Shown here: one piece after another, positions 6,787 through 58,930 of the stretch
How the letters are laid out: each line of letters begins with the position of its first letter
How positions within the stretch are numbered: position 1 is the first letter of the stretch
Assembly: GCA_964501905.1 (NCBI GenBank)
Contig: CAZCTW010000009.1
Location: 11,342 to 75,341 of the forward strand
Direction of reading: 5' to 3'
Origin: an uncultured Thermofilaceae archaeon
GTDB taxonomy: Archaea; Thermoproteota; Thermoprotei; Thermofilales; B69-G16
DNA: 64,000 nucleotides
Notes under the pieces: generated by a model
Databases searched by the model: none
What the model was told of the DNA's origin: nothing
Seen by the model: the letters and a program-made list of their open reading frames with translations, nothing else
Translations under genes and position numbers: made by a program

Positions 6787-8418
6787 CTAGTATTCTCCGA
6801 ATGCAGGTTTTTCTTCCTTGCCCTTTTCCTTCTCTTTGGGCGGCGATGCCGCTATAATATCATCTATTCTTAAGATCATGGCTGCTGCTTCGGTAGCCGA
6901 TTTTAACACCTGCTTTTTAACCACAGCCGGCTCGATAACTCCCGTGTCTAACATATTCTCTATTTTGCCCGTGAATACATTTACGCCAGCCCACTTCTCT
7001 CCAGCTGCATGTTTCTTCCTTAGCTCTGCTATTATATCTACGGGTTCTAACCCGGCGTTTCGAGCTAGTACAGCTGGTAGGAACTCTAGGGCGTCAGCAT
7101 ATTTCATTACTGCTAGTTGTTCTTTGCTAGGTAGGGTCTTAGCGTATTCCCTTAACCTTTTAGCTATTTCCATTTCTATAGCTCCGCCGCCAGCGACGAT
7201 CTTAGGCTCTCTAATTATATTGCGTACAACCGATAATGCGTCATGTATTGCGCGTTCAGCTTCGTCTACCACGTGCTCGGCGCCGCCCCTAATTAGTATG
7301 GTTACCGCTTTGGGGTTGGGGCATCCTTCGATGAAGACCATCTTGTCTTCAGCTACTTTTCTCTCTTCTACTATCTTGGCATAGCCCAAGTCTTTTTCTG
7401 TTAAATCGTCGATGCTTGTTACTATCCTGGCTCCGGTTGCTCTGGCTAGTTTTTCCATGTCTGATTTCTTTACTCTTCTAACAGCTAGTATGCCTTTCTT
7501 AGCTAAGAAGTGTTGAGCCATGTCATCAATGCCTTTCTGCGTGATAACTACGTTGGCGCCGGTCGCGGCTATTTTATCCACCATTTTCTTAAGCATAAGG
7601 GCTTCTTGTTCTAGGAACATCTTTAGCTGTTCTGGACTCGTTATGTTTATCTTAGCTGACCACTCCGGCTTCTCTACTTCGAGGGGCGCGTTGAGTAGTG
7701 CTATTTTGGCATCCACTACTTTGCGGGGCATGCTCGGGTGTACAACTTCTTTATCTAGCACTATACCCTTTACGAGCTCGGTTTCCTCTAGGGATTCGCC
7801 TTTCTTTTTCTCGATCTTGACATTATCCAGTTTAAACTCGTACTTGCCATCTTTCTTTTCGACTACTTGGAGGGCAGCGTTTACCACTAGGTCTGCCAGA
7901 AATTCTTTATATTCGGCTACAGCTTTACTGCTGAGGGAAGTAATTGCTACCTTCTTTAAAACTTCTTTATCAAGGGGATCTACGGGCTCGGCTATTTCAT
8001 CTACAATCTTTAAGGCTTGCTCGAGAGCCTTTTCAAAACCTTCCGTTACCATAGTCGGGTGAATTTCTTCATCTAATAGCTCGTTAGCATTAGCTAGTAA
8101 TTGTCCGGCTAAGACGACGACTGTAGTTGTTCCATCTCCTACTTCATCGTCTTGCGCTTTTGCCACCTCTACCAGCATTTTAGCTGCTGGATGTTGCACG
8201 TCCATTTCCTTAAGTATAGTAGCGCCGTCGCCCGTTATCGTCGCGTTACCGAAGGAGTCTACTAGAAGCTTATCCATGCCTCTAGGACCTAGAGATGAAG
8301 CCAAGGCTTCTGAGATTACTCGAGCGGCGTAGATGTTCGATCGTCTGGCTTCTCTACCCACGGTTCTGCTGGTTCCTTCTTTTAATATTAGAACAGGTAT
8401 TGCCTGTTGAGCCTGCAT
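6787..8418 (-). CDS. ths: Thermosome subunit (group II chaperonin)
   Basis: 543 aa. [23 protein letters not shown]-like GAGGAGGTG upstream of the ATG. Confidence 0.97.
7418..7509. repeat. 92-nt tract, 91/92 identical (in inverted orientation) to 9521-9612 in the paralogous thermosome gene
   Basis: By-eye alignment of the reverse complement with 9521-9612 gives 79 consecutive identical nt plus 12 more after one K/E codon change. Flanking codons differ freely. Confidence 0.85.
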
Positions 8419-8451
8419 AATGCCTACACCTCCTCGGCTATCATCAAATAT

Positions 8452-8464
8452 TTTTCGCTTCTAT
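8452..8464 (-). promoter_or_regulatory. Shared promoter-proximal box (TATA-adjacent ATAGAAGCGAAAA) of the minus-strand thermosome gene
   Basis: TTTTCGCTTCTAT is the exact reverse complement of ATAGAAGCGAAAA at 8565-8577. It abuts an A/T-rich TATA-like run and ends 33 nt before the ATG. Confidence 0.45.
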
Positions 8465-8564
8465 ATATTTTTTACTCTATTTAATATCTTGAATTTCATG
8501 ATCTTCATGTAGATTTAAAGGAGTTAGCTAGCTTTGCGGTGTTCTCCTTTAGAGAAAATTTTAA

Positions 8565-8577
8565 ATAGAAGCGAAAA
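8565..8577 (+). promoter_or_regulatory. Shared promoter-proximal box (TATA-adjacent ATAGAAGCGAAAA) of the plus-strand thermosome gene
   Basis: TTTAAATAGAAGCGAAAA ends 28 nt upstream of the ATG at 8606. Same 13-mer, same orientation relative to its gene as 8452-8464. Confidence 0.45.
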
Positions 8578-8605
8578 GTGTAATGTCTGAAGTTGAGGTG
8601 ATAGT

Positions 8606-10255
8606 ATGGCTGTGGCTCAACTGGGAGGAGTACCTGTTCTAATATTAAAAGAAGGAACCAGCAGGACGACAGGTAAGGAAGCTCTCCGTAATAACATTAT
8701 GGTTGCTAAAGCTATAGCTGAAGCTGTGAAAACTACTCTCGGACCTAAAGGCATGGATAAAATGTTAATAGATAGTCTTGGGGATATTACGGTCACTAAT
8801 GACGGTGCTACAATCCTCGACGAAATAGATGTACAGCATCCTATTGCCAAGTTAATGGTTGAGATCTCTAAAGCGCAAGACGATGAAGTAGGAGATGGAA
8901 CAACGTCTACTGTAGTTATCGCTGGTGAACTGCTTAAAGAGGCAGAAAAACTTCTACTAAAGAATATTCATCCAACGGTCATTGTATCCGGCTATAAGAA
9001 AGGCTTAGAGAAGGCTAAGGAGATCATAAGGAAGATGGCGATCAAGGTTTCTCTTGACGACGAAGAGACGCTTAAGAAGGTCGCCATGACCGCGATGAGA
9101 GGAAAATCTGTGGCCGCTGTCAGGGAGTACCTTGCTGAACTATCTGTAAAAGCTGTAAAACAGGTCGCTGAGGAGAGAGATGGAGAGTTCGTGGTAGATC
9201 TGGACAATATACAGTTAATTAAGAAAAAGGGAGGCGCCATTTTAGATACTAAACTAGTTTATGGAGTGATTATAGATAAGGAAGTTGTGCACCCAGGAAT
9301 GCCTAAGCGCATCGAAAATGCCAAAATAGCGCTCTTAGACGCTCCTCTAGAAATTGAAAAAACGGAGATTGATGCCGAGATAAGAATTCACGACCCAGAG
9401 CAGATGCAGGCGTTCTTGAAAGAAGAAGAGCGCCTGTTGCAGGAGAAGGTTAAGAAGATTAAGGAAGTGGGAGCTAACGTAGTTTTCGTTCAGAAGGGAA
9501 TTGATGATGTAGCCCAGCATTTCTTAGCTAAGGAAGGCATACTAGCTGTTAGAAGAGTAAAGAAATCAGACATGGAAAAACTAGCCAGAGCAACCGGAGC
9601 CAGGATAGTAACTAAAATCGAGGATTTAACTCCTGAAGTCCTAGGCGAGGCGGGTCTTGTTGAAGAGCGTGAAGTTGCTGGAGACAAAATGGTGTTCGTA
9701 GAGCAGTGTAAAAACCCCAAAGCAGTTAGCATACTGATAAGAGGAGGACTAGAAAAAGTTGTAGACGAGGCAGAACGTTCTCTCATAGACGCTCTCAGCG
9801 TAGTAGCGGACGTAATTGAAGAGCCCTACATACTGCCAGGTGGAGGCGCGCCTGAAGCAGAGGTAGCTAAAGAGCTTAAAAACTACGCGGCTCAATTAGG
9901 AGGTAGAATTCAACTAGCCGTCGAAGCTTTCGCGAACGCTGTGGAGGTTATACCGAGAACCTTGGCCGAGAACGCTGGTCTAGATCCCATAGATATACTA
10001 GCTGAACTACGTGCAGCTCACGAGAAGGAGGACGGGTGGAAGTACGGGATCGACGTATTTGAAGGTAAAGTATCGGACATGCTTAAGCTAGGTGTCGTAG
10101 AACCGTTGATAGTGAAGGAGCAAGCGTTTAAGGCAGCTACTGAAGCCGCTACGCTGATACTAAGAATTGATGATATAATTGCTGCGTCCAAGTTGGAGAC
10201 TAAAGAAGGTAAAGAAAAAGAAGAGAAGGGAGAAAAAGAAAGCGAATTTGACTAA
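8606..10255 (+). CDS. ths: Thermosome subunit (group II chaperonin), paralog of 6787-8418
   Basis: 549 aa. [23 protein letters not shown]-like GAGGTGAT upstream. Divergent from the other subunit across a 187-bp spacer. Confidence 0.97.
9521..9612. repeat. 92-nt tract, 91/92 identical (inverted) to 7418-7509
   Basis: See 7418-7509. Encodes [31 protein letters not shown]. Confidence 0.85.
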
Positions 10256-10256
10256 A

Positions 10257-10538
10257 CTACCCCCCCGTTATTTGTCCAATTGTTGCGTTATAAATAGCGT
10301 CTAAATCCTCACCTAATACTTCCACTATGAACTTATCTAATGCCCCTTCTGAGCCTTGGTAAGCTAACTTTAACGTAGCTATAAGGTCGGATAGCAACGT
10401 GAGCAGGATTACCATAGCTATCAGGCTTAATCCCAAGAGCAAGCCTTCTTCTATCATTTGACTTCCCTTTTTCCCGTTTCTTTTTTCCTTGTTCAGCATT
10501 AGCTTAGTTATCATCTCCTGTACTATATGGACTATCAC
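10257..10538 (-). CDS. Flp/Epd-like type IV pilin candidate
   Basis: Likely start MLNKEKRNGKKG|SQMIEEGLLLGLSLIAMVILLTLL. Basic leader, Gly, Glu at +5, then a ~20-aa hydrophobic helix (pattern G/xxxxE[YE]GL as in Flp and EppA-dependent pilins). Last gene of the operon. Confidence 0.55.
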   Translation of the reverse strand: MIVHIVQEMITKLMLNKEKRNGKKGSQMIEEGLLLGLSLIAMVILLTLLSDLIATLKLAYQGSEGALDKFIVEVLGEDLDAIYNATIGQITGG

Positions 10539-10585
10539 ACTCCCCTACGAAGATGTGCACTAACCTATATAAGCTGGCTAACTCC

Positions 10586-11434
10586 TTATTCTTCGTCTAT
10601 TCTTTTATAGTAGAACTTTACCTTGGGGAAACGTATGCGGTCTATACTAGCTCCTGAATTCCTCGCGTAGAGGTCTACTAGGGAGAATTTAAGCGTGCAC
10701 TTGTAAAAGGTAGAATTTTCATCTTTCCGAATTGGCGTGCATGCAAGGTTATGCTCGGCTTTTATTCCATATTTTGCAATTCCGATGAACACTTTCCTTT
10801 CCATGTACTTCTCTGGCGTGAGAGAACTTACAATAGTTCTTTCTCTTAGTTTCTTTATAATCGCAAAGCCGATCTCATGTAGTTTGAAATAACGCAGAGA
10901 TATGCATACGACCAGCGTCTCATTTTTTCCATAAAATATTCCGTAACTTTGGTTTTCGTAGAAGTAATTCATGTTAGTAATGCCACATACAGATCTTGAG
11001 TTAATTTTTTTACCGTCCAAAAGCCTAAAGTTTACCTTTTGTTTTAAATCTCTATACTCGCAAATGGTTATATTAGAAGTAAAAAATGTTACAGTCTTAT
11101 TCTTAACTGTAAAGTAGCTTTTTAACTCTGAACTGCTCCATGCGTCCCTTAGCAAGGCATTATAGGCAACATTTATTCTCTTCTCTACTTCTCTTCTAGA
11201 AAAGCATTTTTTCGAAGCTAATTCCATTTGTTTAACGAAGATCTCGCTTAAGATATCTAGCTGGACGTAATTGACGTTTCTACATATTCTTTCCACCTGT
11301 TTTAAAGCGAGTACTTTCTCTTTGATAGTTATGTAAAACGCGTAAATTTCTAAGTAGACGTGCAACGTAGAAACCGCTGTAATACTTATGAGCAAAACTG
11401 CTATTGCTATTAAAATTCCCCTTCTATTCTTCAA
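10586..11434 (-). CDS. Secreted/pilin-like protein with class-III-like signal (MKNRRG|ILIAIAVLLISITAV)
   Basis: 282 aa. Basic N-terminus + Gly + hydrophobic helix, then a soluble domain. 11-nt overlap with the upstream gene. Confidence 0.45.
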   Translation of the reverse strand: MKNRRGILIAIAVLLISITAVSTLHVYLEIYAFYITIKEKVLALKQVERICRNVNYVQLDILSEIFVKQMELASKKCFSRREVEKRINVAYNALLRDAWSSSELKSYFTVKNKTVTFFTSNITICEYRDLKQKVNFRLLDGKKINSRSVCGITNMNYFYENQSYGIFYGKNETLVVCISLRYFKLHEIGFAIIKKLRERTIVSSLTPEKYMERKVFIGIAKYGIKAEHNLACTPIRKDENSTFYKCTLKFSLVDLYARNSGASIDRIRFPKVKFYYKRIDEE

Positions 11435-11867
11435 GCTTACACACCACGTAAATATGAATCATTTTCATTTTACCATTGTCATATGCTAACAAGGCAGAGT
11501 GCGCCGTAATGTTTGAGTAAGCTTTTTCAGGATATTTGCATAAAATTCTTCTAGCATTTTCCCAATGGCAGACATATCCGCTCTCAGTCACTAGTGTTTC
11601 ATTCTTTTCCAAGATTTTATCCATTAATTCCAAGGCTATTTCTTCACTCAGATATCTACATTTTTGCTTACTTTGAAAACTTACCAATTGAGCAAATCTA
11701 TTTTTAGAGTATAGAATGACTGAAAAAAGGAGAATGACTACAATGGCTGTGCATAGAATATCAATCAAATATCCTCTCATAATCCCCCTTCCAGTATATG
11801 TTCTGTGATTTGTTCTATAAGTGAGAAATTGACTATCCATGCTAGTAAAACTAGGAAAATCAAACAT
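11424..11867 (-). CDS. Pilin-like/minor subunit candidate (single N-terminal TM)
   Basis: 147-aa ORF. Probable start at MRGYLIDILCTAIVVILLFSVILY. Soluble domain follows. Confidence 0.4.
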   Translation of the reverse strand: MFDFPSFTSMDSQFLTYRTNHRTYTGRGIMRGYLIDILCTAIVVILLFSVILYSKNRFAQLVSFQSKQKCRYLSEEIALELMDKILEKNETLVTESGYVCHWENARRILCKYPEKAYSNITAHSALLAYDNGKMKMIHIYVVCKLEE

Positions 11868-11909
11868 ATAAATATGGCTACAGTTACCGATATCAATAAA
11901 ATAGACCCC

Positions 11910-12239
11910 TTACCCGCCATAAGGATAGACCTCTATTCGTCCATCGATTTTTTCAACTATGTAGGTCTCGCCTCCATGTATCGATATTAAGCTTCCAAAC
12001 TCCGTAAGATTCATAGTTAAGGTATAGTTTTGACCAAGCTCAGGAACTGTAAAAACCAAATAACCACCTTCGGGAATTTTTAAAAATACTCCCTGTAATA
12101 TTCTCTGCAGTAGGATTAGAGGACAGTCAAACGATACAGATGTTACTTCGTTTTGACATTTGACTAGGAGCCCTAGCACTAGCGTAAATAGGATGAACCA
12201 TACGAATACTGCGAGAAGCTCCTCGACAACTTTGCTCAT
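11910..12239 (-). CDS. Leaderless pilin-like protein
   Basis: 109 aa. MSKVVEELLAVFVWFILFTLVLGLLV has Glu at +5 after Met removal followed by a hydrophobic helix. ATGA start/stop overlap with the upstream 46-aa ORF. Confidence 0.45.
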   Translation of the reverse strand: MSKVVEELLAVFVWFILFTLVLGLLVKCQNEVTSVSFDCPLILLQRILQGVFLKIPEGGYLVFTVPELGQNYTLTMNLTEFGSLISIHGGETYIVEKIDGRIEVYPYGG

Positions 12240-12376
12240 ATACTCACCCTAATATTCAAGATTTTGATAATGTCTTGTAGAAATTTTCGAAGTAGGAGAA
12301 TGAAAAATGGCAAGGCGATAGTCGCTAGGATGAGTGAAATGGCTTCTATTAGGCTTTCCTCTATAATCCTCTTCAT
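12236..12376 (-). CDS. 46-aa leaderless pilin-like micro-protein (below ORF-track cutoff)
   Basis: Hand translation: MKRIIEESLIEAISLILATIALPFFILLLRKFLQDIIKILNIRVSI*. Its stop TGA overlaps the ATG of the next gene. Same xxxxEE-hydrophobic N-terminus as its neighbours. Confidence 0.4.
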   Translation of the reverse strand: MKRIIEESLIEAISLILATIALPFFILLLRKFLQDIIKILNIRVSI

Positions 12377-12423: not shown

Positions 12424-13677
12424 CTATTCGAATGCCCAGGCGAAATTTTCTAAACAGAAATTTATTAAAAAGAACAAAACAATAAAGGCAATCACTTTCT
12501 TGAGAGCTTCATAACTCCTATGCCGGGTTAAGTCTAGACTTAGAGAGGAGATAAAGAGCGAGAATATATACCCCGCTAGGAAAAGAGTTAAATTGTTATT
12601 GGCTTTTTTAAATATAAAAATTAAAGCGAAAACTAAAGCTATTGTTGCGGAGGAAATATAGTATACGATGTCGGATTTATATTTTAAAATATGCATTTTA
12701 TCGCATAAATCTTTTAACGTTATTCTGCCTTTTCTTAAAACTATAATAAGATTTTCAATCTGTCTAATTCCTGTCTCAAGGCTGCTATTTTCCAGTATAG
12801 TGCTAATACCATTGAGGAAATGATCTGAGCTATTTAGGAGATGTCTTCGGGAGAAAAGCCATTCAGCAAATCTATCCTCGATTAACTCCTTTTTGTTATT
12901 TTTGAGGAACTCCTTCAGAGCATTTTCAAAATTCACACTCTTTTTCAGGCGTTCTAATGTCCACGAGAGCAATAGTTCGAAATTTAGATTTTCTTTTAAT
13001 AATTCTTTACATCTATCATCTCGTTCAGATTTTTTTAGATAAAGATAAAGGGTTAAGAGTATGAGAAAGAATAGAACTATGTAAGCAGGGTTTGAGTATT
13101 TACAATAGAATAAGAATTCAATTCCACCTAGCGTGGAAGTAAAAGCGGCCAATATTGCAACATTGAAATTTAACCGGTAATCACTTATTTTACTGGCTAG
13201 GAAGAAGTGCAGGATAATAGTAGAGAATGTTAAGAAGAGAAATGCTCTATAGAAATCCAGTATTCCGAAAAAAATAGAGAGAGAAAGGAATATCGGGATA
13301 AAAGCTGTTAAAGCTACAAAAAGCATTATTTTATCCTCTAATTTCTTAATGTAGCTCTTAAAGAGTAACTGTTCTTCATCAAATATTCTGAGGGGATACT
13401 CTTTTATTTCTCTTTGAGGTGGGGGTGAGAAGAAAAGCAATTTAATTAAGTATGGCAGGTGTTCATCTTTGAAATTTCCGTTATCTTCTTTTATGAAATT
13501 GCGTAAGTTGAAACTGATCTTCTTAAATAAATCTGACGAAGAGATTTTAGCTAAATCCCTTACTGCTTGATAAGTATTGCCTCTTCTAGAGAGATAAAGA
13601 ACTACAAAAATTATTGTATCTTGTACAGTGGATATGAAATCTTCAAATTTCACTTTTACACCTGGCCAGGAATTCAT
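12424..13677 (-). CDS. TadC/FlaJ-like polytopic platform protein of a type IV filament system
   Basis: 417 aa. Two blocks of hydrophobic helices, each preceded by a charged soluble segment. Overlaps the ATPase gene by 35 nt. Position and architecture fit the T2SSF family; no sequence search was done. Confidence 0.6.
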   Translation of the reverse strand: MNSWPGVKVKFEDFISTVQDTIIFVVLYLSRRGNTYQAVRDLAKISSSDLFKKISFNLRNFIKEDNGNFKDEHLPYLIKLLFFSPPPQREIKEYPLRIFDEEQLLFKSYIKKLEDKIMLFVALTAFIPIFLSLSIFFGILDFYRAFLFLTFSTIILHFFLASKISDYRLNFNVAILAAFTSTLGGIEFLFYCKYSNPAYIVLFFLILLTLYLYLKKSERDDRCKELLKENLNFELLLSWTLERLKKSVNFENALKEFLKNNKKELIEDRFAEWLFSRRHLLNSSDHFLNGISTILENSSLETGIRQIENLIIVLRKGRITLKDLCDKMHILKYKSDIVYYISSATIALVFALIFIFKKANNNLTLFLAGYIFSLFISSLSLDLTRHRSYEALKKVIAFIVLFFLINFCLENFAWAFE

Positions 13678-15514
13678 TAAGGCATAACCGTATACCCTTT
13701 AGGTTTTTACTGTTTAGTAGTTCTCTAATTCGCTTTATGAGGAGTATTACCTGCGTCTTTGAGAATCTATTTTCAATGGATATTTTTTCAATTAACCTAG
13801 AATTTTCATATGCAAGGGTTCTTTTAAGTACGTTATCGCTTTGTCTAATAAAGAGAGGATGAAACCAGCGAAGAGGATACTTTTCTTCAATGCTTGCAGC
13901 TCTCTCGAGAATCAGCGATACTTCCTTTTTATCTCTCCGATAAAGGTCTCTTCTCATGAAGACTATTAGATCGAGGCTTTTTAGAAGACTAGGCGAAATA
14001 GAGAAAACTTCGGTATACCTGTATATTAATTGTTCTAAACTAAGGGCGTGCGTAGTCTGCATACACCTTAAGCCAGCATTCATAGCGTGAAAAGCCGCCA
14101 CTACATGTTCCCTGCTCTGCAACTCTCCCAGAATTAAATAATCAGGTTTCCGATGTAACATTTTCACAATTTCAATAGCTTTACTCGAAGGCCCCCACTC
14201 CGATTCTTCAAAAGCACCAACTTTAAGCCTTAATTGATGCTTACCCTCTTTTAATTGGTTAACAGATTCAACCACATCTTCGATGTATACCTTTCTGAAA
14301 GTTCTAGGAAGTAGCATATCCAGAGCGTTAAGTAGCGTGGTCTTACCACTTCCGGGTTCGCCGCATATAAGTATATTAGACCGGAAAATAGCCGCTATTA
14401 GCAAGAAAGCCGCGGCATCTGCTGTAAGAGTGCCGCTATTTACTATGTCCACCAAGGTCATAGGTTTATTTCGGTATTTCCTGACGTCTAAAGCTACGCC
14501 GTCTACTGCAAGTGGAGGTACGTCTACAGCAACTCTAACTCTGAATAAGCAAGTTATGTAGTCTGTTTTTAGTGAGGGTGACGAAAATGAGATGAAACTT
14601 CCTGTATCAATTTTTATATGGGTTAGAAAGGCTTCTAACTCCCTCGGGGATAGCGCTATGTTAGATAGGCATCTTCCGTATTTTTCATGGTCCAAGTAGA
14701 TTTTCGTAGAGGGGGCATCTTGGAAAAATTCCTGCACATAGTCGTCTAAGAGAAATGGCATTACACGGGTTACCTTAATTGAACTAAAAAATGATAGGTA
14801 AGCCAATTTTTTCAATTCCCTCTTTGTGATTCTTGAGAGAACATCCGGACAGAAACTTTGCGCTATGCCATGGAATAGGCTAAGTCTGTGATCGAGAATA
14901 TCATCAAAGTGAGCTATTGCAATTTTCTTAAAGAAATATCTTCGGTCGTATTCCACTAACAAACTCCCTAAGGACATATATGAAAGCTTAACATCTACGC
15001 ACTCTGAGAAAATTCTCACTCGATAAAAACTTTCTAATGTTTTTGTATCTAATATATCGACATTATAACAGTAAACTTCGTATGAATCTCTGATGGAGTT
15101 TTTCCTTTTTCTTTTTCCAGGAATTTTCTCAAGATTAATATACCGTAGCAATTCTCTATTTTGATCAAAAGAGAAATTTTTAGGAAGTAAACGCATCTTT
15201 TTAATAAAGTCTAAATTTCCATTCAATAGATTCTCAAGGGCATCATAGGCTTTATTATTGAAAACCGCCGATACTCTAACTTTGTTAACAGCGTCTGCGA
15301 GAGGCGCGAGGATGCTGAAGATAGTTTTCTTATCTAGAATAGCACATTCTTTGCCATCATAAAGTATTAAACTGCTAAATGATTTCAGCAAACGCGCTCG
15401 AAGAGAGAATACCCTAACTAATTCATCTAGAATCTCCTCGCCTAGTCTTCCATTATTTGTAAAGCCGATTTTTTTAACTTTAGAGCTCTGTCTTGCGTAG
15501 ATTTCTATTCTCAT
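13643..15514 (-). CDS. Type II/IV secretion-family ATPase (FlaI/TadA/VirB11-like) with ~350-aa unique N-terminal region
   Basis: 623 aa. Walker A ILICGEPGSGKTTLLNAL, IEDVVE, Walker B-like PDYLILGELQSRE, His-box MQTTHA. Confidence 0.85.
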   Translation of the reverse strand: MRIEIYARQSSKVKKIGFTNNGRLGEEILDELVRVFSLRARLLKSFSSLILYDGKECAILDKKTIFSILAPLADAVNKVRVSAVFNNKAYDALENLLNGNLDFIKKMRLLPKNFSFDQNRELLRYINLEKIPGKRKRKNSIRDSYEVYCYNVDILDTKTLESFYRVRIFSECVDVKLSYMSLGSLLVEYDRRYFFKKIAIAHFDDILDHRLSLFHGIAQSFCPDVLSRITKRELKKLAYLSFFSSIKVTRVMPFLLDDYVQEFFQDAPSTKIYLDHEKYGRCLSNIALSPRELEAFLTHIKIDTGSFISFSSPSLKTDYITCLFRVRVAVDVPPLAVDGVALDVRKYRNKPMTLVDIVNSGTLTADAAAFLLIAAIFRSNILICGEPGSGKTTLLNALDMLLPRTFRKVYIEDVVESVNQLKEGKHQLRLKVGAFEESEWGPSSKAIEIVKMLHRKPDYLILGELQSREHVVAAFHAMNAGLRCMQTTHALSLEQLIYRYTEVFSISPSLLKSLDLIVFMRRDLYRRDKKEVSLILERAASIEEKYPLRWFHPLFIRQSDNVLKRTLAYENSRLIEKISIENRFSKTQVILLIKRIRELLNSKNLKGIRLCLNEFLARCKSEI

Positions 15515-15520
15515 GGTTAG

Positions 15521-16474
15521 CTAAAGGGCGCCTATGATAGAATATATGTATTTTACGTTGTTTCTGAAAGCGCTTAAAGAGCATCCGAATTTCTTAGATA
15601 TATATCCTTGACTAATCACTCTTTTGCCATATATCGCTATGAAAACTACGTAAAAAAGGGCAAGTGCTAAGATATGAGGATTTTTGCCCTGTAGTTTTCT
15701 TGGATCGACCTTATGTAGTAGAAACATAGCTTTTTGACAGATTTCTCTTTCAAGTAGGTACACATTTTTAGCCCCAACTTTACGTTTTACTCTTTCATCG
15801 GAAAGAATTCTCTTTGTAATAACTGGTATAATTCTTCTTATTCTATCAGCCACACTCGGCTTTTCATACATTTTAAAGGATTGAAGAAGAAAAATTGCCT
15901 CCATTAAGTTAGACTTAGTAACACGATGACCCAGGTCCTGATAGACTTTAAGGATATCACTAACTCGTATGCTAAACCCATGCTTTCTGGAGGACGCTAT
16001 TAAACAAGCGGCTGAAATTCTGTAATGGTTAAGTTTACCATTTAGGTTTTCGTCAATATTCCTTAAGAATTTCAGGTATAGTGCGTATGCGTACTCTACA
16101 ACGTATTTCGGCAATCCCACTTTTTGAGCTGCGATGTATAACGTCTTGTGTACTCTGTAATGCATTGACTTGTCTCCTGCAACCTTAGAAAAAAGGTTTA
16201 GCCTGCTCATTCTCTTTAATTTACTGTAAAAGTGGAAGTTAATTTTAAAATCGAGTTTTTTCGCACAAGCTGGAGATAGAAATGTGCCCAGCTCTAGCGG
16301 AGCTGGAGTATAACCTTGGGCAGTAATTCTATTGGCTAGAATGTAGGATTCTTCTCTAATTCTATTCTCTACGTGAACTAAACCGCACACGCTGCACACG
16401 AGCTCACCATTTTCGTTTAAGACCAGTTTTCCTCCACATTCCATGCAATACATAGTCCGTAAGCGACTCTCCAA
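15521..16474 (-). CDS. TFIIB (TFB) paralog
   Basis: 317 aa. N-terminal Zn ribbon CMECGGKL...CSVCG, then two cyclin-like repeats (RISAACLIASSRKHGFSIRVSDI; PHILALALFYVVFIAIYGKRVISQGYISKKFG). Stop lies 6 nt before the ATPase ATG. Confidence 0.8.
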   Translation of the reverse strand: MESRLRTMYCMECGGKLVLNENGELVCSVCGLVHVENRIREESYILANRITAQGYTPAPLELGTFLSPACAKKLDFKINFHFYSKLKRMSRLNLFSKVAGDKSMHYRVHKTLYIAAQKVGLPKYVVEYAYALYLKFLRNIDENLNGKLNHYRISAACLIASSRKHGFSIRVSDILKVYQDLGHRVTKSNLMEAIFLLQSFKMYEKPSVADRIRRIIPVITKRILSDERVKRKVGAKNVYLLEREICQKAMFLLHKVDPRKLQGKNPHILALALFYVVFIAIYGKRVISQGYISKKFGCSLSAFRNNVKYIYSIIGAL

Positions 16475-56099: not shown

Positions 56100-57713
56100 G
56101 TGTTACTTGCTGTCGAGATTAGGTTTAAAAAGGTTATGGACATGCTGGAAGAGATATACATACCGGACACAGATGCAATATTGAGAGGGGTAGTTAGGAG
56201 ATTAATCGAAAGAAACGAGATAAGGGGAAAGATACTGGTCCACATGCTAGCAGTCGATTTCTTCGAGAAAATGGCTAGGGAGGGCGGTAGCCAGGGGTTA
56301 GTGGGTCTGCAGGAGCTAACGATGTTGAGGGAAGCCGTTAATGCAAACCCTAAAGTTGACATAGAATATACCCGGGAACTGCCTGAAGGTCATAAATTCA
56401 GAGGGGATCTGGACATTAATGATATAATAAGAGACTTAGCTCTGGAGTTAAACGCGGTTTTAATAACTTCAAGTCCGTTAAGAGCTCAGAGCGCTAAGGC
56501 CCTAGGTATTCAAGTTATATTTGTTGGTGGAAAAGATTCGAAGCGGTTAATTTTAGATGAATTCTTCGATAATAACACTATGTCTGTTCACCTCAAGGAA
56601 AACGTCTGCCCATACGCTAAAAAAGGCACGCCTGGTAAGTGGCGTTTCGTACCGCTTCGCGATACTCCAATGACTCGAGTTGAAATAGAGGAGATAGTTA
56701 GAGAGATAATAGAGGCTGCCAAAACATCACAAAGAGCTTTTATAGAAGTTGAGAGATCAGGATCGACGATTATTCAGTTAGAGAACTATAGGATAGTCAT
56801 TACTAGGCCACCGTTTTCCGACGGCATCGAGGTCACGGCTGTGAGACCTATTGCTAAGTTATCTCTGGAAGATTACAACCTACCGGCTAAGCTTATTCGT
56901 AGACTTGAGAAGCAGGCCGAGGGGATATTGATAGCAGGTGCTCCCGGAATGGGTAAGACCACGTTTGCCCAAGCCTTAGCCGAATATTACCACAGGAAGG
57001 GGAGAATAATAAAAACAATAGAGTCCCCCAGAGATATGCAGTTGCCGGACGAGATTACTCAGTACTCCAAGAGTCACGGTACGTCAGAAGAAGTTCATGA
57101 TGTGCTCTTACTGTCTAGGCCTGATTACACATTCTTTGATGAAATGAGGGATACTAAAGACTTTGAGCTCTACGCCGACCTCAGATTAGCTGGCGTGGGT
57201 ATGGTGGGAGTGGTGCATGCTACGAGCCCGATAGATGCTATTCAACGGTTTGTAGGCAGGGTAGAGTTAGGTATGATACCTTCCATAATAGATACTGTCA
57301 TCTTCATAGAGAACGGAGAGGTAAGGAAGGTATACGAGCTAGAGACTGTAGTGAAAATACCGCATGGTTTAAGGGAGGCTGACTTAGCTAGACCCGTAGT
57401 GGTTGTCAAAAACTTCCTCACAGGCGAGCCTGAGTATGAACTTTACGTCTTCGGAGAAAGGACTTTCGTCGTCCCCGTGAAGCGGACTAAAACGGCTAGG
57501 GAGAGGAGAGTAGAGACAGCGATATACGCTGCACTCAGGAAATACATACCTGATGAAGACATCGAGATAGAAATTTCCCAAAATGGTAACGTGACGATAC
57601 ACGTAGATCCCGAGTACTACAACGTGTTGTTAACTAGTAAAGTACGCAGAAAAATAGAAAGAATCGGTAAAAAACTTGGAGTGAGCATAACGTTTAAACC
57701 TAAGTTCAGATAA
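56100..57713 (+). CDS. PIN-domain + PilT/PhoH-like P-loop ATPase + KH-like tail (COG1855-type)
   Basis: 537-aa ORF; probable start is MDMLEEIYIPDTDAIL. Walker A GAPGMGKTTFAQAL, FFDEMRD. Confidence 0.8.
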   Translation: MLLAVEIRFKKVMDMLEEIYIPDTDAILRGVVRRLIERNEIRGKILVHMLAVDFFEKMAREGGSQGLVGLQELTMLREAVNANPKVDIEYTRELPEGHKFRGDLDINDIIRDLALELNAVLITSSPLRAQSAKALGIQVIFVGGKDSKRLILDEFFDNNTMSVHLKENVCPYAKKGTPGKWRFVPLRDTPMTRVEIEEIVREIIEAAKTSQRAFIEVERSGSTIIQLENYRIVITRPPFSDGIEVTAVRPIAKLSLEDYNLPAKLIRRLEKQAEGILIAGAPGMGKTTFAQALAEYYHRKGRIIKTIESPRDMQLPDEITQYSKSHGTSEEVHDVLLLSRPDYTFFDEMRDTKDFELYADLRLAGVGMVGVVHATSPIDAIQRFVGRVELGMIPSIIDTVIFIENGEVRKVYELETVVKIPHGLREADLARPVVVVKNFLTGEPEYELYVFGERTFVVPVKRTKTARERRVETAIYAALRKYIPDEDIEIEISQNGNVTIHVDPEYYNVLLTSKVRRKIERIGKKLGVSITFKPKFR

Positions 57714-57805
57714 GTAGTTAGCATAACAATAGAGCAAAGAGATAATCTAAAGATGAGTTTAATTATGAGAACTCCACTTCTAATAAATAGAATCGAGGTC
57801 TAAAC

Positions 57806-58930
57806 ATGGCGATCAGATCCTGTAGAAGATGCATCTACTATACACCGAGCAGGAGTTACTGTCTAAAGCTGATGAAAAAAATCGAAAATCCCGACGAGCC
57901 TCCATGCATGCAGATAAGTTCACCCCAGAATCAGAGCCGTAAGGGATCTATAGTAGCAAAGCCGGTTTTACCAAAGAGCGAGAAGATTCAAATTGAAGAA
58001 GAGAAAAGGTTGAACAATAATAGTTTCAGAGATGAAGATACTCAAATGGAAGCACTAGCATATAATCCGACTCTTGAGGAAACAGCTAGATCTCAGACAG
58101 TGATCTCATATCCGCCTCAACAATATCAATTAAATGAGAAAGTTCTAAGCTCTTTCTCTACACTTGTGTCTTATAAGTTGCCGTCTGAGTTTAGAGATTA
58201 CTATACCTCTACCGGGATACCATACCTAGATGAAATCCTGGGTGGGGGTTTTCTAAGAGGGAAAACATATCTAGTAGCTGGCGAAACTGGTTGCGGAAAG
58301 ACAATTTTTTCATTGCAATTTCTAATTTATGGAGCATTACATGGAGAACCTGGAGTTTACATAGCTATAGACGAGCCTACTGATCAACTTATAAAGGGTA
58401 TTAAGCAGTTTGGTTGGGATGTAACACCGCTTATAAAAGCGAGAAAGCTCCTCTTCCTTGACATGAGGACTCACTTCAGCAAGATATACTTGAGAGATGA
58501 AAGGAAGAAAATAGAGCCCAAATACATCATTGAATCTATAATAAAAAACGCTAAAGAAGTGAGAGCTAGAAGGCTAGTCATAGACCCTATAGCGCCGCTA
58601 ATATATGGCGGAACTAAGGATGACGTGTTGTATGCGAGGGAGTTTCTAAGAGAGATGGTTTTTGCTATCGAAAAAACGGGGAAACTGACTACAGTGATGA
58701 CGAGTGAGATCCCCACAGGGAGTAAACAGCTAAGTCGCTTTGGTGTGGAGGAGTTTCTAGCTTCGGGAATAATTGTTCTAGGCTTAGAAGAAATAGGGGG
58801 GAGAATTGAACGAGTTATGTACATTAGGAAAGCTAGGTGGTCCCCCGTAAGACCTGGTAAGTTTATTTTTGATATAATCCCCGGCACGGGTATTGTTATT
58901 AAGGGTCCATTGGAGAAGTTTAAAAGCTAG
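57806..58930 (+). CDS. KaiC/RadB-like RecA-superfamily ATPase with Cys-rich N-terminus
   Basis: 374 aa. CRRCIYY...YC...PPC, then GIPYLDEILGGGFLRGKTYLVAGETGCGKT and RLVIDPI. Confidence 0.8.
   Translation: MAIRSCRRCIYYTPSRSYCLKLMKKIENPDEPPCMQISSPQNQSRKGSIVAKPVLPKSEKIQIEEEKRLNNNSFRDEDTQMEALAYNPTLEETARSQTVISYPPQQYQLNEKVLSSFSTLVSYKLPSEFRDYYTSTGIPYLDEILGGGFLRGKTYLVAGETGCGKTIFSLQFLIYGALHGEPGVYIAIDEPTDQLIKGIKQFGWDVTPLIKARKLLFLDMRTHFSKIYLRDERKKIEPKYIIESIIKNAKEVRARRLVIDPIAPLIYGGTKDDVLYAREFLREMVFAIEKTGKLTTVMTSEIPTGSKQLSRFGVEEFLASGIIVLGLEEIGGRIERVMYIRKARWSPVRPGKFIFDIIPGTGIVIKGPLEKFKS

Follow-up and report, generated by a model that had tools for sequence, protein, structure and literature searches.

Two leaderless pilin-like genes beside a candidate major pilin in a TFB- and ATPase-linked operon of an uncultured Thermofilaceae archaeon

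The locus described here lies on a stretch of 64,000 nucleotides (nt) from an uncultured Thermofilaceae archaeon (GenBank assembly GCA_964501905.1, contig CAZCTW010000009.1, positions 11,342 to 75,341); the whole stretch is called the window, and positions are counted from its first letter. A string of co-oriented minus-strand genes runs from 16474 to 10257 and encodes a TFB-like protein, an assembly ATPase, a membrane protein of 417 amino acids (aa) and then six small proteins, p46, p109, p47, p118, p282 and p93, which occupy the interval 10257–12376 and have one N-terminal hydrophobic helix each. A preliminary description of this DNA had reported a set of three pilin-like open reading frames (ORFs), p46, p109 and p93. 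All three were found where it had placed them, on the minus strand; the count of three was too low, as p47, p118 and p282, which lie between them, had gone unmentioned. The features are as follows; a slash marks a predicted cleavage site, and numbers such as L001 denote loci of relatives that were compared with the window.

15521..16474, minus strand: TFB/TFIIB-like gene, 317 aa, first gene of the module (Pfam Zn_Ribbon_TF, E=6.5e-7; TFIIB repeat, E=3e-4).
13643..15514, minus strand: assembly ATPase, 623 aa, of the T2SSE / FlaI / TadA-CpaF superfamily (Pfam T2SSE, E=1.1e-19).
12424..13677, minus strand: polytopic membrane protein, 417 aa, ~6 predicted helices; candidate platform protein, by position and conservation.
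12236..12376, minus strand: p46, leaderless small membrane protein, MKRIIEES and one hydrophobic helix (conserved start; GGAGG 3 nt upstream of the ATG).
11910..12239, minus strand: p109, leaderless pilin-like protein, MSKVVEEL followed by a helix and a small beta domain (stop 3 codons upstream; GGTGA motif resembling a Shine–Dalgarno (SD) sequence).
11777..11920, minus strand: p47, tiny membrane protein with a very short class III-like leader, MAGKG/SILL ([KR]G/S kept in L001, L003 and L008).
11424..11780, minus strand: p118, minor-pilin-like protein, MRG/YLIDIL (profile matches in relatives).
10586..11434, minus strand: p282, largest pilin-like protein, MKNRRG/ILIAIAVLL, candidate tip or adhesin subunit ([KR]G/[FIV] and the hydrophobic helix kept in both lineages).
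10464..10538, minus strand: p93 leader peptide, 25 aa, basic, ending in KKG (variable among relatives, next to a nearly invariant mature part).
10257..10463, minus strand: mature part of p93, 68 aa, beginning SQMIEEGLLLGL, plus stop; predicted major pilin, by its class III-type signal and conservation.
10566..10572, minus strand: TATA-like box TTATATA upstream of p93, conserved in relatives; putative promoter element.

ATGA or few-base overlaps join p46 to p109 (the p46 stop lies on the p109 start, as ATGA), p47 to p118 (the p47 stop overlaps the p118 start) and p118 to p282; p93 is separated from p282 by a 47-nt spacer that holds the TATA-like box.

p46 and p109 each begin at the first ATG, GTG or TTG after an in-frame stop. 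Three codons separate this stop from the p109 ATG in the window, and 3–9 codons do so in any close locus, so that no class III leader can be encoded. The p109 start, MSKVVEE, is followed by 19 hydrophobic residues and the p46 start, MKRIIEES, by about 21; both thus carry the acidic residue near position 5 of the alpha-1 helix that is looked for in type IV pilins, and both are without the leader, removed by prepilin peptidase, that is looked for as well. With a pattern that was defined after seeing the data, ^M-x(1,2)-[ILVM][ILVM]-E-E plus a hydrophobic stretch, 2 of the 265 window ORFs of at least 40 aa were matched (p46 and p109), and none in 200 shuffles.

These starts are kept in relatives. 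In the syntenic loci L001, L002 and L003 (ATPase identity 52–61%), p46 homologues start with M-[KR]-R-[IV]-x-E-E-[SQ] and p109 homologues with M-S-[KR]-[IV]-x-E-E; in the distant L004 (ATPase identity 43%), GTG and TTG stand at the same positions and give M-ARVMEES and M-KGVVEES. In both lineages the called starts of p46 and p109 are preceded, at a distance of a few bases, by SD-like GGTGA or GGAGG motifs. When 1.84 billion representative proteins were scanned in full with HMMER, five representatives of the p109 family were found, and all of them align residue 1 to residue 1; a word-based homologue search with p109 returned p109 itself only. The remark in the preliminary description that p46 was not on the ORF track agrees with the absence of the exact p46 sequence from a 15-billion-protein collection. 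Among the window, L001 and L003, with synonymous sites saturated, the proportion of nonsynonymous differences (pN) was 0.21–0.25 for p46 (up to 0.46 against the more distant L002), 0.21–0.39 for p109 and 0.20–0.26 for the ATPase. Values of this size between genomes with saturated synonymous sites point to purifying selection on p46 and p109.

It is very improbable, and on this evidence largely refuted, that the leaderless appearance is an artefact, the ORFs not being genes or their true starts lying upstream and having been mis-called. In favour of such an artefact, p46 is uncalled in this genome, the gene caller picked a longer, 61-aa form of it in L002, and the first cassette gene is extended at its N-terminus in L006/L007. 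However, the L002 extension is kept in no other locus, there is no canonical start upstream of p46 in the window, and the in-frame stops leave p109 its few codons at most; the SD-like motifs and ATGA overlaps stand at the called starts, pN is far below the synonymous value (pS), and the gene calls agree in the five p109 representatives. The leaderless starts proposed at the outset have thus held: neither a lack of conservation nor longer upstream leaders in the homologues, either of which would have spoken against them, was found.

Met-Ser is a substrate of methionine aminopeptidase and Met-Lys is not. The earlier statement that Glu stands at +5 once Met has been removed therefore fits p109, in which trimming of Met-Ser would leave Ser1 and Glu5/Glu6 in the register of processed p93, and is doubtful for p46, in which Met-Lys would be retained, so that Glu would occupy positions 6 and 7 and Lys-Arg would stay at the tip. 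The registers match in profile alignments by hhalign, in which p109 S-R-I-I-E-E falls on p93 S-Q-L-V-E-E, that is, Ser2 on Ser+1 (probability 33%), and p46 R-I-x-E-E on p109 R-I-I-E-E (probability 69%). Low probabilities are expected for 25–40 hydrophobic residues, and the alignments are supportive, not proof.

The p93 product (10257–10538) reads MIVHIVQEMITKLMLNKEKRNGKKG/SQMIEEGLLLGLSLIAMVILL. Gly at −1 and Glu at +5 are as the preliminary description had them, and p93 has a Flp-like size and a long leader. In L001 and L003 an ATG stands where p93 has its GTG start, in front of which lies GGGGAG. A word-based search with p93 gave 7 close relatives; a search of metagenome contigs with the p93 alignment gave 48 loci, from which a profile then gathered about 40 distinct sequences. 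These share [KR][GA] followed by S-[QP]-[LM]-[IV]-E-E-G-[LM]-L and about 20 hydrophobic residues, with S+1, E+5, E+6 and G+7 invariant or nearly so. The 10–25 residues before the predicted cut are basic and not conserved, and in close relatives the part after it is almost invariant; a variable leader on a constrained mature part is the pattern expected of a cleaved leader on a structural subunit. The class III signal has been defined as a hydrophilic leader of 6–26 aa ending in Gly, followed by about 21 hydrophobic residues with Glu5 (PMC4471445), and p93 and its ~40 relatives agree with this definition, by motif and not by any hidden Markov model (HMM). pN for p93 (0.13–0.17) is the lowest in the operon (ATPase 0.20–0.34). 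The TATA-like box lies 28 nt upstream of the p93 start; it reads TTATATA in L001 and L003 and TTTAAATA in L090, L112 and L119, and such a box is found at 27–40 nt upstream in both lineages, which suggests that p93 has its own promoter. An AlphaFold2 model of p93 is all-alpha, at low confidence (predicted local distance difference test (pLDDT) score 64). In more than 15 loci, p93 relatives adjoin the TFB/ATPase module.

The preliminary description had also called p93 a pilin of the Flp/Epd type. As a statement of family membership this is not supported: p93 and 16 diverse relatives gave no match to Pfam Flp_Fap (E up to 5) or Class_IIIsignal/DUF361, and the residue at +1 is Ser, not Gln, and that at +6 Glu, not Tyr. 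"Flp-like in design" is a fair description, and p93 is, as judged by its motif, a class III-signal protein of an undescribed family. A VirB2/Ced-type pilin was considered for p93 and rejected, since p93 has a single hydrophobic helix and the T4SS_pilin family was matched only by fusion variants of 150 aa. These variants (L115:2781-3233, L125:5607-6059, L135:7995-8440) have a p93-type N-terminus, ..G/SPM[IV]EEGLLI.., and a C-terminal two-helix part with matches to Pfam T4SS_pilin (E=4.6e-4) and TrbC/VirB2 (E=0.02). The fusion gene is followed in L115 and L125 by a multi-transmembrane (multi-TM) ORF of ~205 aa, and in L135 the p93-type and T4SS-pilin-like halves are separate ORFs. A type IV-style signal on a conjugative-type pilin would be an unusual chimera.

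The remaining members of the cassette, p47, p118 and p282, differ from p46 and p109 in having very short class III-like leaders with [KR]G/ sites. p118 was found by profile in 11 locus copies (~7 distinct loci), starting with M-R-[GAF]-Y-x-[IV]-D or MYVID, and contains two N-x-S/T sequons; a 147-aa reading of it was rejected because the homologues start with MRGY and the ATGA overlap with the p47 stop favours Met30. No Pfam or NCBIfam family was found for any small protein of the locus.

The linkage of cassette and ATPase is conserved. The order TFB, ATPase, membrane protein, p46, p109, p47, p118, p282, p93 is syntenic in L001, L002, L003 and L096. The cassette also occurs, with its five genes in this internal order, in a second and more remote lineage (L090, L112, L119, L139), where it lies between the TFB-like and ATPase genes and is divergently transcribed; this lineage's first cassette gene starts with MHLVLEK, MKTLER or MELLTER, its second with MKEVLEEH, MTEES or MPSESLAEQ, and these are followed by a tiny membrane protein, a ~140-aa protein with K-[KR]-K-G/ and a ~280–300-aa protein with [KR]-G/. 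In L004 the cassette (homologues of p46, p109, p118 and p282; L004:2408-4034) lies 3 kb from the TFB-ATPase-membrane protein module (L004:7088-10960) and on the other strand, so that cassette and machine can be unlinked; p93 was not found on this 14-kb stretch.

The window ATPase belongs to the PilB/GspE/TadA/FlaI family of assembly ATPases that marks type IV filament systems, as judged by its Pfam T2SSE match and by its best PDB sequence matches, which are the archaeal GspE of Archaeoglobus (2OAP, 8.9e-28), FlaI (5e-20) and CpaF (6e-17). Orthologues with 61% identity occur in metagenome-assembled genomes of Thermoprotei, and beyond the protein's own archaeal family the next relatives in a 5.8-billion-protein search were bacterial CpaF/TadA. 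All matches of the ATPase to the NCBIfam FlaI, TadA and BasE models were under cut-off. A genome-collection scan with a single ATPase query gave no match; a scan with the ATPase alignment, for which generic Walker-A patterns were used, returned mostly unrelated loci of Tad systems and type IV pili (T4P), with only L009 and L010 useful. The gene of the membrane protein stands where that of TadC/FlaJ would, all close loci keep it, and, from position and topology, its product would be the platform protein. Its counterparts in the sister lineage, which are split into two genes, are likewise without a Pfam match. The TFB-like gene is directly upstream of the ATPase gene in L001-L008, L089 and L092 and near it in L090, L112, L119, L122, L131 and L139.

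The preliminary description had linked the leaderless pilins to the absence of a peptidase gene from the locus. This link was not borne out: p93, p47, p118 and p282 have leaders, and the 25-residue leader of p93 and the [KR]G/ sites of the other three imply that a prepilin peptidase is still needed. Archaeal prepilin peptidase (PibD) genes are commonly unlinked to the pilus locus (PMC4858521). No credible A24 peptidase adjoins any of the related archaeal loci in a search for multi-TM proteins with GxGD.

Several neighbouring genes were noted in the course of the comparison. As expected of an archaeal source, two thermosome genes flank the pilus region in the window, the window's tRNAs are of archaeal type, and its closest protein relatives belong to Thermoprotei metagenome-assembled genomes. 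In the window lineage a thermosome gene directly follows p93 (flank at window 6787-10255), and one flanks the pilus locus in L001, L002, L090, L091, L112, L119, L122 and L131; this flank is seen in both lineages, often with an AAA_18 kinase-like gene, as an old conserved synteny with no obvious functional reason. The sister lineage has, after p93, a gene for a ~620-aa P-loop protein with an N-terminal membrane-helix anchor (L090:12031-13920, L112:8256-10230, L113:3992-5857, L117:8222-10084, L119:8228-10108, L139:8210-9929; two ORFs in L112 and L139), which the window lineage does not have; the L090 protein matches DUF87, HerA_C and TraG P-loop families and is thus CedB/VirB4-like. Module ATPases on three hot-spring contigs (L122:5017-6738, L131:4945-6687, L139:5075-6814) carry a Cys-rich N-terminal extension, CxxC ... 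C ... C, and in these loci p93 lies ~1.2 kb downstream of the ATPase gene after two short ORFs (169–211 aa) that had no Pfam match in the L122 copies tested. An RpbG/Rpb8 gene stands beside the TFB-like gene of the module in L090:3543-4989 and L091:2025-3527, and in three relatives (L008:13216-13695, L092:13358-13930 and L004:11030-11506) the pilus module is followed by a gene of the ThermoDBP-RP type (PF10015). The window encodes a second ATPase of the T2SSE family (56100-58930, plus strand; 537 aa, Pfam E=1.8e-8), with no pilin set adjoining, which is directly followed by a KaiC-like ATPase (374 aa, E=3.7e-66) and SRP54; archaeal KaiC-type ATPases have been reported as T4P-associated regulators (PMC4858521).

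Comparison with known systems showed partial likeness to several of them. p93 resembles the Flp pilin of bacterial Tad systems in its long leader (25 aa; the Flp1 leader of bacterial Tad pili has 26 aa, PMC4471445), in Gly −1 and Glu +5 followed by Gly-Leu, in its small mature part and in its predicted all-helical fold with no beta domain; Tad pilins are likewise without the globular domain (PMC11067988). The window ATPase, after its archaeal relatives, is likewise nearest CpaF/TadA. In contrast to Flp, p93 does not match Flp_Fap (PF04964), and its invariant Glu at +6 stands where Flp has Tyr (PMC3875500). The locus also differs from Tad loci in its archaeal host, in having no TadV, secretin or TadZ, and in another minor set with two leaderless members; TadE and TadF are processed by TadV according to a reference listed in PMC4471445. 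Epd pilins of Methanococcus maripaludis have Gly −1, Glu +5 and 54–63 mature residues, and several minor pilins are essential there (PMC3875500). p93, a small archaeal pilin candidate with the same two residues and accompanied by several minor members, is like them in these respects. Unlike EppA substrates, which have Gln at +1 (PMC3875500), nearly all p93 relatives have Ser at +1 (with Gln or Pro at +2); p93 has no DUF361/Class_IIIsignal (PF04021) match and a leader of 25 aa as against 5–13 aa in Epd, no EppA gene lies in the locus, and all Epd minor pilins have leaders.

The clade 4D systems of Makarova, Koonin and Albers (2016), found in Thermoproteales, combine a TFIIB homologue, a divergent ATPase and an unrecognisable protein with 4–5 TM segments and are linked to RPB8; no potential pilins or secreted proteins were ever found in the locus (PMC4858521). 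The window module is like them in its TFB-like gene in an operon with a divergent secretion ATPase and an unrecognisable membrane protein, in the RPB8 neighbourhood of the sister loci L090 and L091, and in the Cys-rich N-terminal extension of some sister ATPases. The untraceable extra components of Desulfurococcales clade 4A (PMC4858521) likewise count among the closest known systems. It differs from clade 4D in the six pilin-like genes that adjoin it, a major pilin candidate and a five-gene cassette. A clade 4D identity of the window module, in which case its ATPase would belong to arCOG05558, is a lead.

Low-abundance minor (pseudo)pilins of the type II secretion system (T2SS) and of type IVa pili (T4aP) form priming complexes, GspH-I-J-K and FimU-PilV-W-X, in which all known bacterial members have cleavable leaders. 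The cassette is like these sets in its four to five co-transcribed pilin-like genes of graded sizes, one of them large, beside the machine, and in the varying use of an acidic residue near position 5 among the members; no sequence or fold similarity to T2SS/T4aP minor pilins was detected with NCBIfam or, for p109, with Foldseek. ArlF/ArlG (FlaF/FlaG), which belong to the type IV filament machine of the archaellum, have a pilin-like N-terminal helix and are not processed. They differ from p109 in being beta-sandwich proteins that anchor the motor to the S-layer, and no similarity of p109 to them appears among the Foldseek matches listed. CedA1 of the archaeal Ced DNA-import system is a pilus subunit assembled without N-terminal processing (PMC9905601); unlike type IV pilins, it is a VirB2-type two-helix pilin of a VirB4/VirB6-like machine.

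We consider it a little better than an even chance that the interval 10257–12376 is the pilin-coding half of a Tad/Epd-like type IV filament operon of an archaeon, with p93 as the major pilin and p46 and p109 as unprocessed minor members. p93 would be made with its 25-residue basic leader, a peptidase encoded elsewhere would cut after Gly25, and the product would be a 68-residue, all-helical subunit of Flp size with Glu at +5 and +6. The five upstream genes would form a minor-pilin or priming cassette, very short class III-type leaders being kept in p47, p118 and p282. p46 and p109, with the initiator Met at the peptidase cut position, would enter the membrane in a "mature pilin" state independently of the peptidase; their most likely role would be to dock on the platform and to nucleate or cap the filament. 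The AlphaFold2 model of p109 (pLDDT 75.5) has a membrane helix (3–27), another helix (41–53) and a sheet of five strands, in general terms the layout of a pilin. The C-terminal domains of p109, p118 and p282 have 1.00, 1.23 and 1.42 N-x-S/T sequons per 100 aa (0.34–0.35 in the ATPase and the TFB-like protein), which fits domains that face outside and are glycosylated. p109 is a probable unprocessed minor pilin; for the p46-type proteins, a pilin and a membrane-resident accessory protein are about equally likely.

A number of results weigh against this interpretation. Beside the missing Pfam matches of p93, its family gave no NCBIfam pilin model above noise, a PDB sequence search with the p93 profile gave nothing meaningful, and Foldseek found no match to the p93 model; the p109 model matched no solved pilin or other structure (best E=0.5), so that no HMM or fold evidence from Pfam, NCBIfam, PDB sequences or, for p109 and p93, Foldseek links any of the six small proteins to a known pilin family. 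The membrane protein is without Pfam, NCBIfam or PDB-sequence similarity, profile search included, and T2SSF was not detected in it (best E=0.2, in one of nine homologues). No ORF of the 64-kb window combines multiple TM segments with GxGD, as an A24 prepilin peptidase would; three of the window's multi-TM ORFs were checked and had other Pfam assignments. In L006/L007, a partial exception to the leaderless starts, the first cassette gene is extended by 13 residues that are not basic, and the homologue of p109 may have 6–7 additional residues at its N-terminus. The profile alignment of p109 with p93 is weak, and a general resemblance among TM helices could account for it. Where the first, p46-type cassette gene is long, its product has a cytoplasm-like sequon density of 0.24 per 100 aa, and a p46 that retains Met-Lys-Arg would not fit easily into the core of a filament. 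In p46 and p109 the N flank has a net charge of 0 to −2, and the charge difference across the helix (N minus C) is in most cases zero or negative, so that the N-in, pilin-like orientation is not predicted by the positive-inside rule; this difference is mostly positive in p282, which has a positive N flank, and in p47, and is mixed in p118.

Much of this would also be expected if p46 and p109 were membrane-resident accessory parts (anchor, stator or alignment proteins) that have a pilin-like helix but are never extracted from the membrane, their acidic N-termini contacting the platform or the ATPase. We regard such a role for both proteins as rather unlikely. It would accommodate the neutral or acidic N flanks with their charge differences, the N-terminal Lys-Arg of a p46 that is one helix long, the low sequon density of the long first-gene homologues and the want of Foldseek similarity between p109 and solved pilins. 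Unprocessed pilin-like anchors have precedents in ArlF/ArlG of the archaellum and TadG of Tad systems. TadG is cited as a hypothesised pilus anchor (PMC4858521). Against it, the p109 N-terminus is in register with that of mature p93, the sequon density of p109 is like that of the other outside-facing cassette proteins, ArlF/ArlG structures are absent from the listed p109 matches, and p46 and p109 head a cassette with three cleavable pilin-type signals, as in T2SS and T4P minor-pilin sets. The module might, alternatively, not be a pilus at all and serve secretion, DNA transfer or a transcription-linked function, as Makarova et al. speculated for clade 4D, with the small proteins as membrane components; this we hold to be improbable. 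Such a function would be in keeping with the existence of TFIIB-linked ATPase systems with a 4–5-TM protein, an RPB8 link and no recognisable pilins (PMC4858521), with RpbG/Rpb8 beside the TFB-like gene in two sister loci, with the unrecognisable membrane protein, with the membrane-anchored DUF87/HerA/TraG-like ATPase after p93 in the sister lineage and with the fusion of p93-type N-termini to a T4SS-pilin-like domain. However, p93 has every feature of the class III signal sequence (PMC4471445), is the most conserved protein of the operon and has a promoter-like element of its own, as is typical of a major structural subunit; the ATPase falls among those of filament assembly, and TFIIB homologues are common neighbours of ordinary archaeal T4P loci (PMC4858521).

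A pilin operon with p93 as major subunit remains our preferred interpretation, in which p46 and p109 may be filament subunits. A further-reaching version of it, in which two conserved subunits bypass the peptidase, are born "mature" and prime or cap a filament of processed, Flp-sized pilin, and in which the p93 family and its cassette are the "missing pilins" of the TFIIB-linked (clade 4D-like) systems of Thermoproteota, coupled to a CedB/VirB4-like ATPase in the sister lineage, is put forward tentatively and at clearly less than even confidence.

To our knowledge, all type IV pilins, pseudopilins and archaellins described so far are synthesised with a leader, which is taken off by a dedicated peptidase. 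Leader cleavage is treated as a defining step of the type IV pilin superfamily, and in the literature searched no type IV pilin-like protein was described that lacks a leader; CedA1 and ArlF/ArlG come nearest as precedents. What is new here is an undescribed family of candidate major pilins, together with a conserved minor cassette in which the first two genes encode no leader; the system itself is of a known kind. If this is true, p46 and p109 would demonstrate that at least some type IV subunits can do without the leader, and the leaderless pair would allow the purpose of the leader, be it membrane orientation, assembly timing or recognition, to be studied in a natural experiment. The p93 family, which comprises about 40 distinct sequences and for which neither Pfam nor NCBIfam has a model, is a candidate major pilin of TFB-linked ATPase modules in uncultured Thermoproteota, and if the p93-linked modules are the pilin-less TFIIB-linked systems of the 2016 census, the function of the latter would become directly testable.

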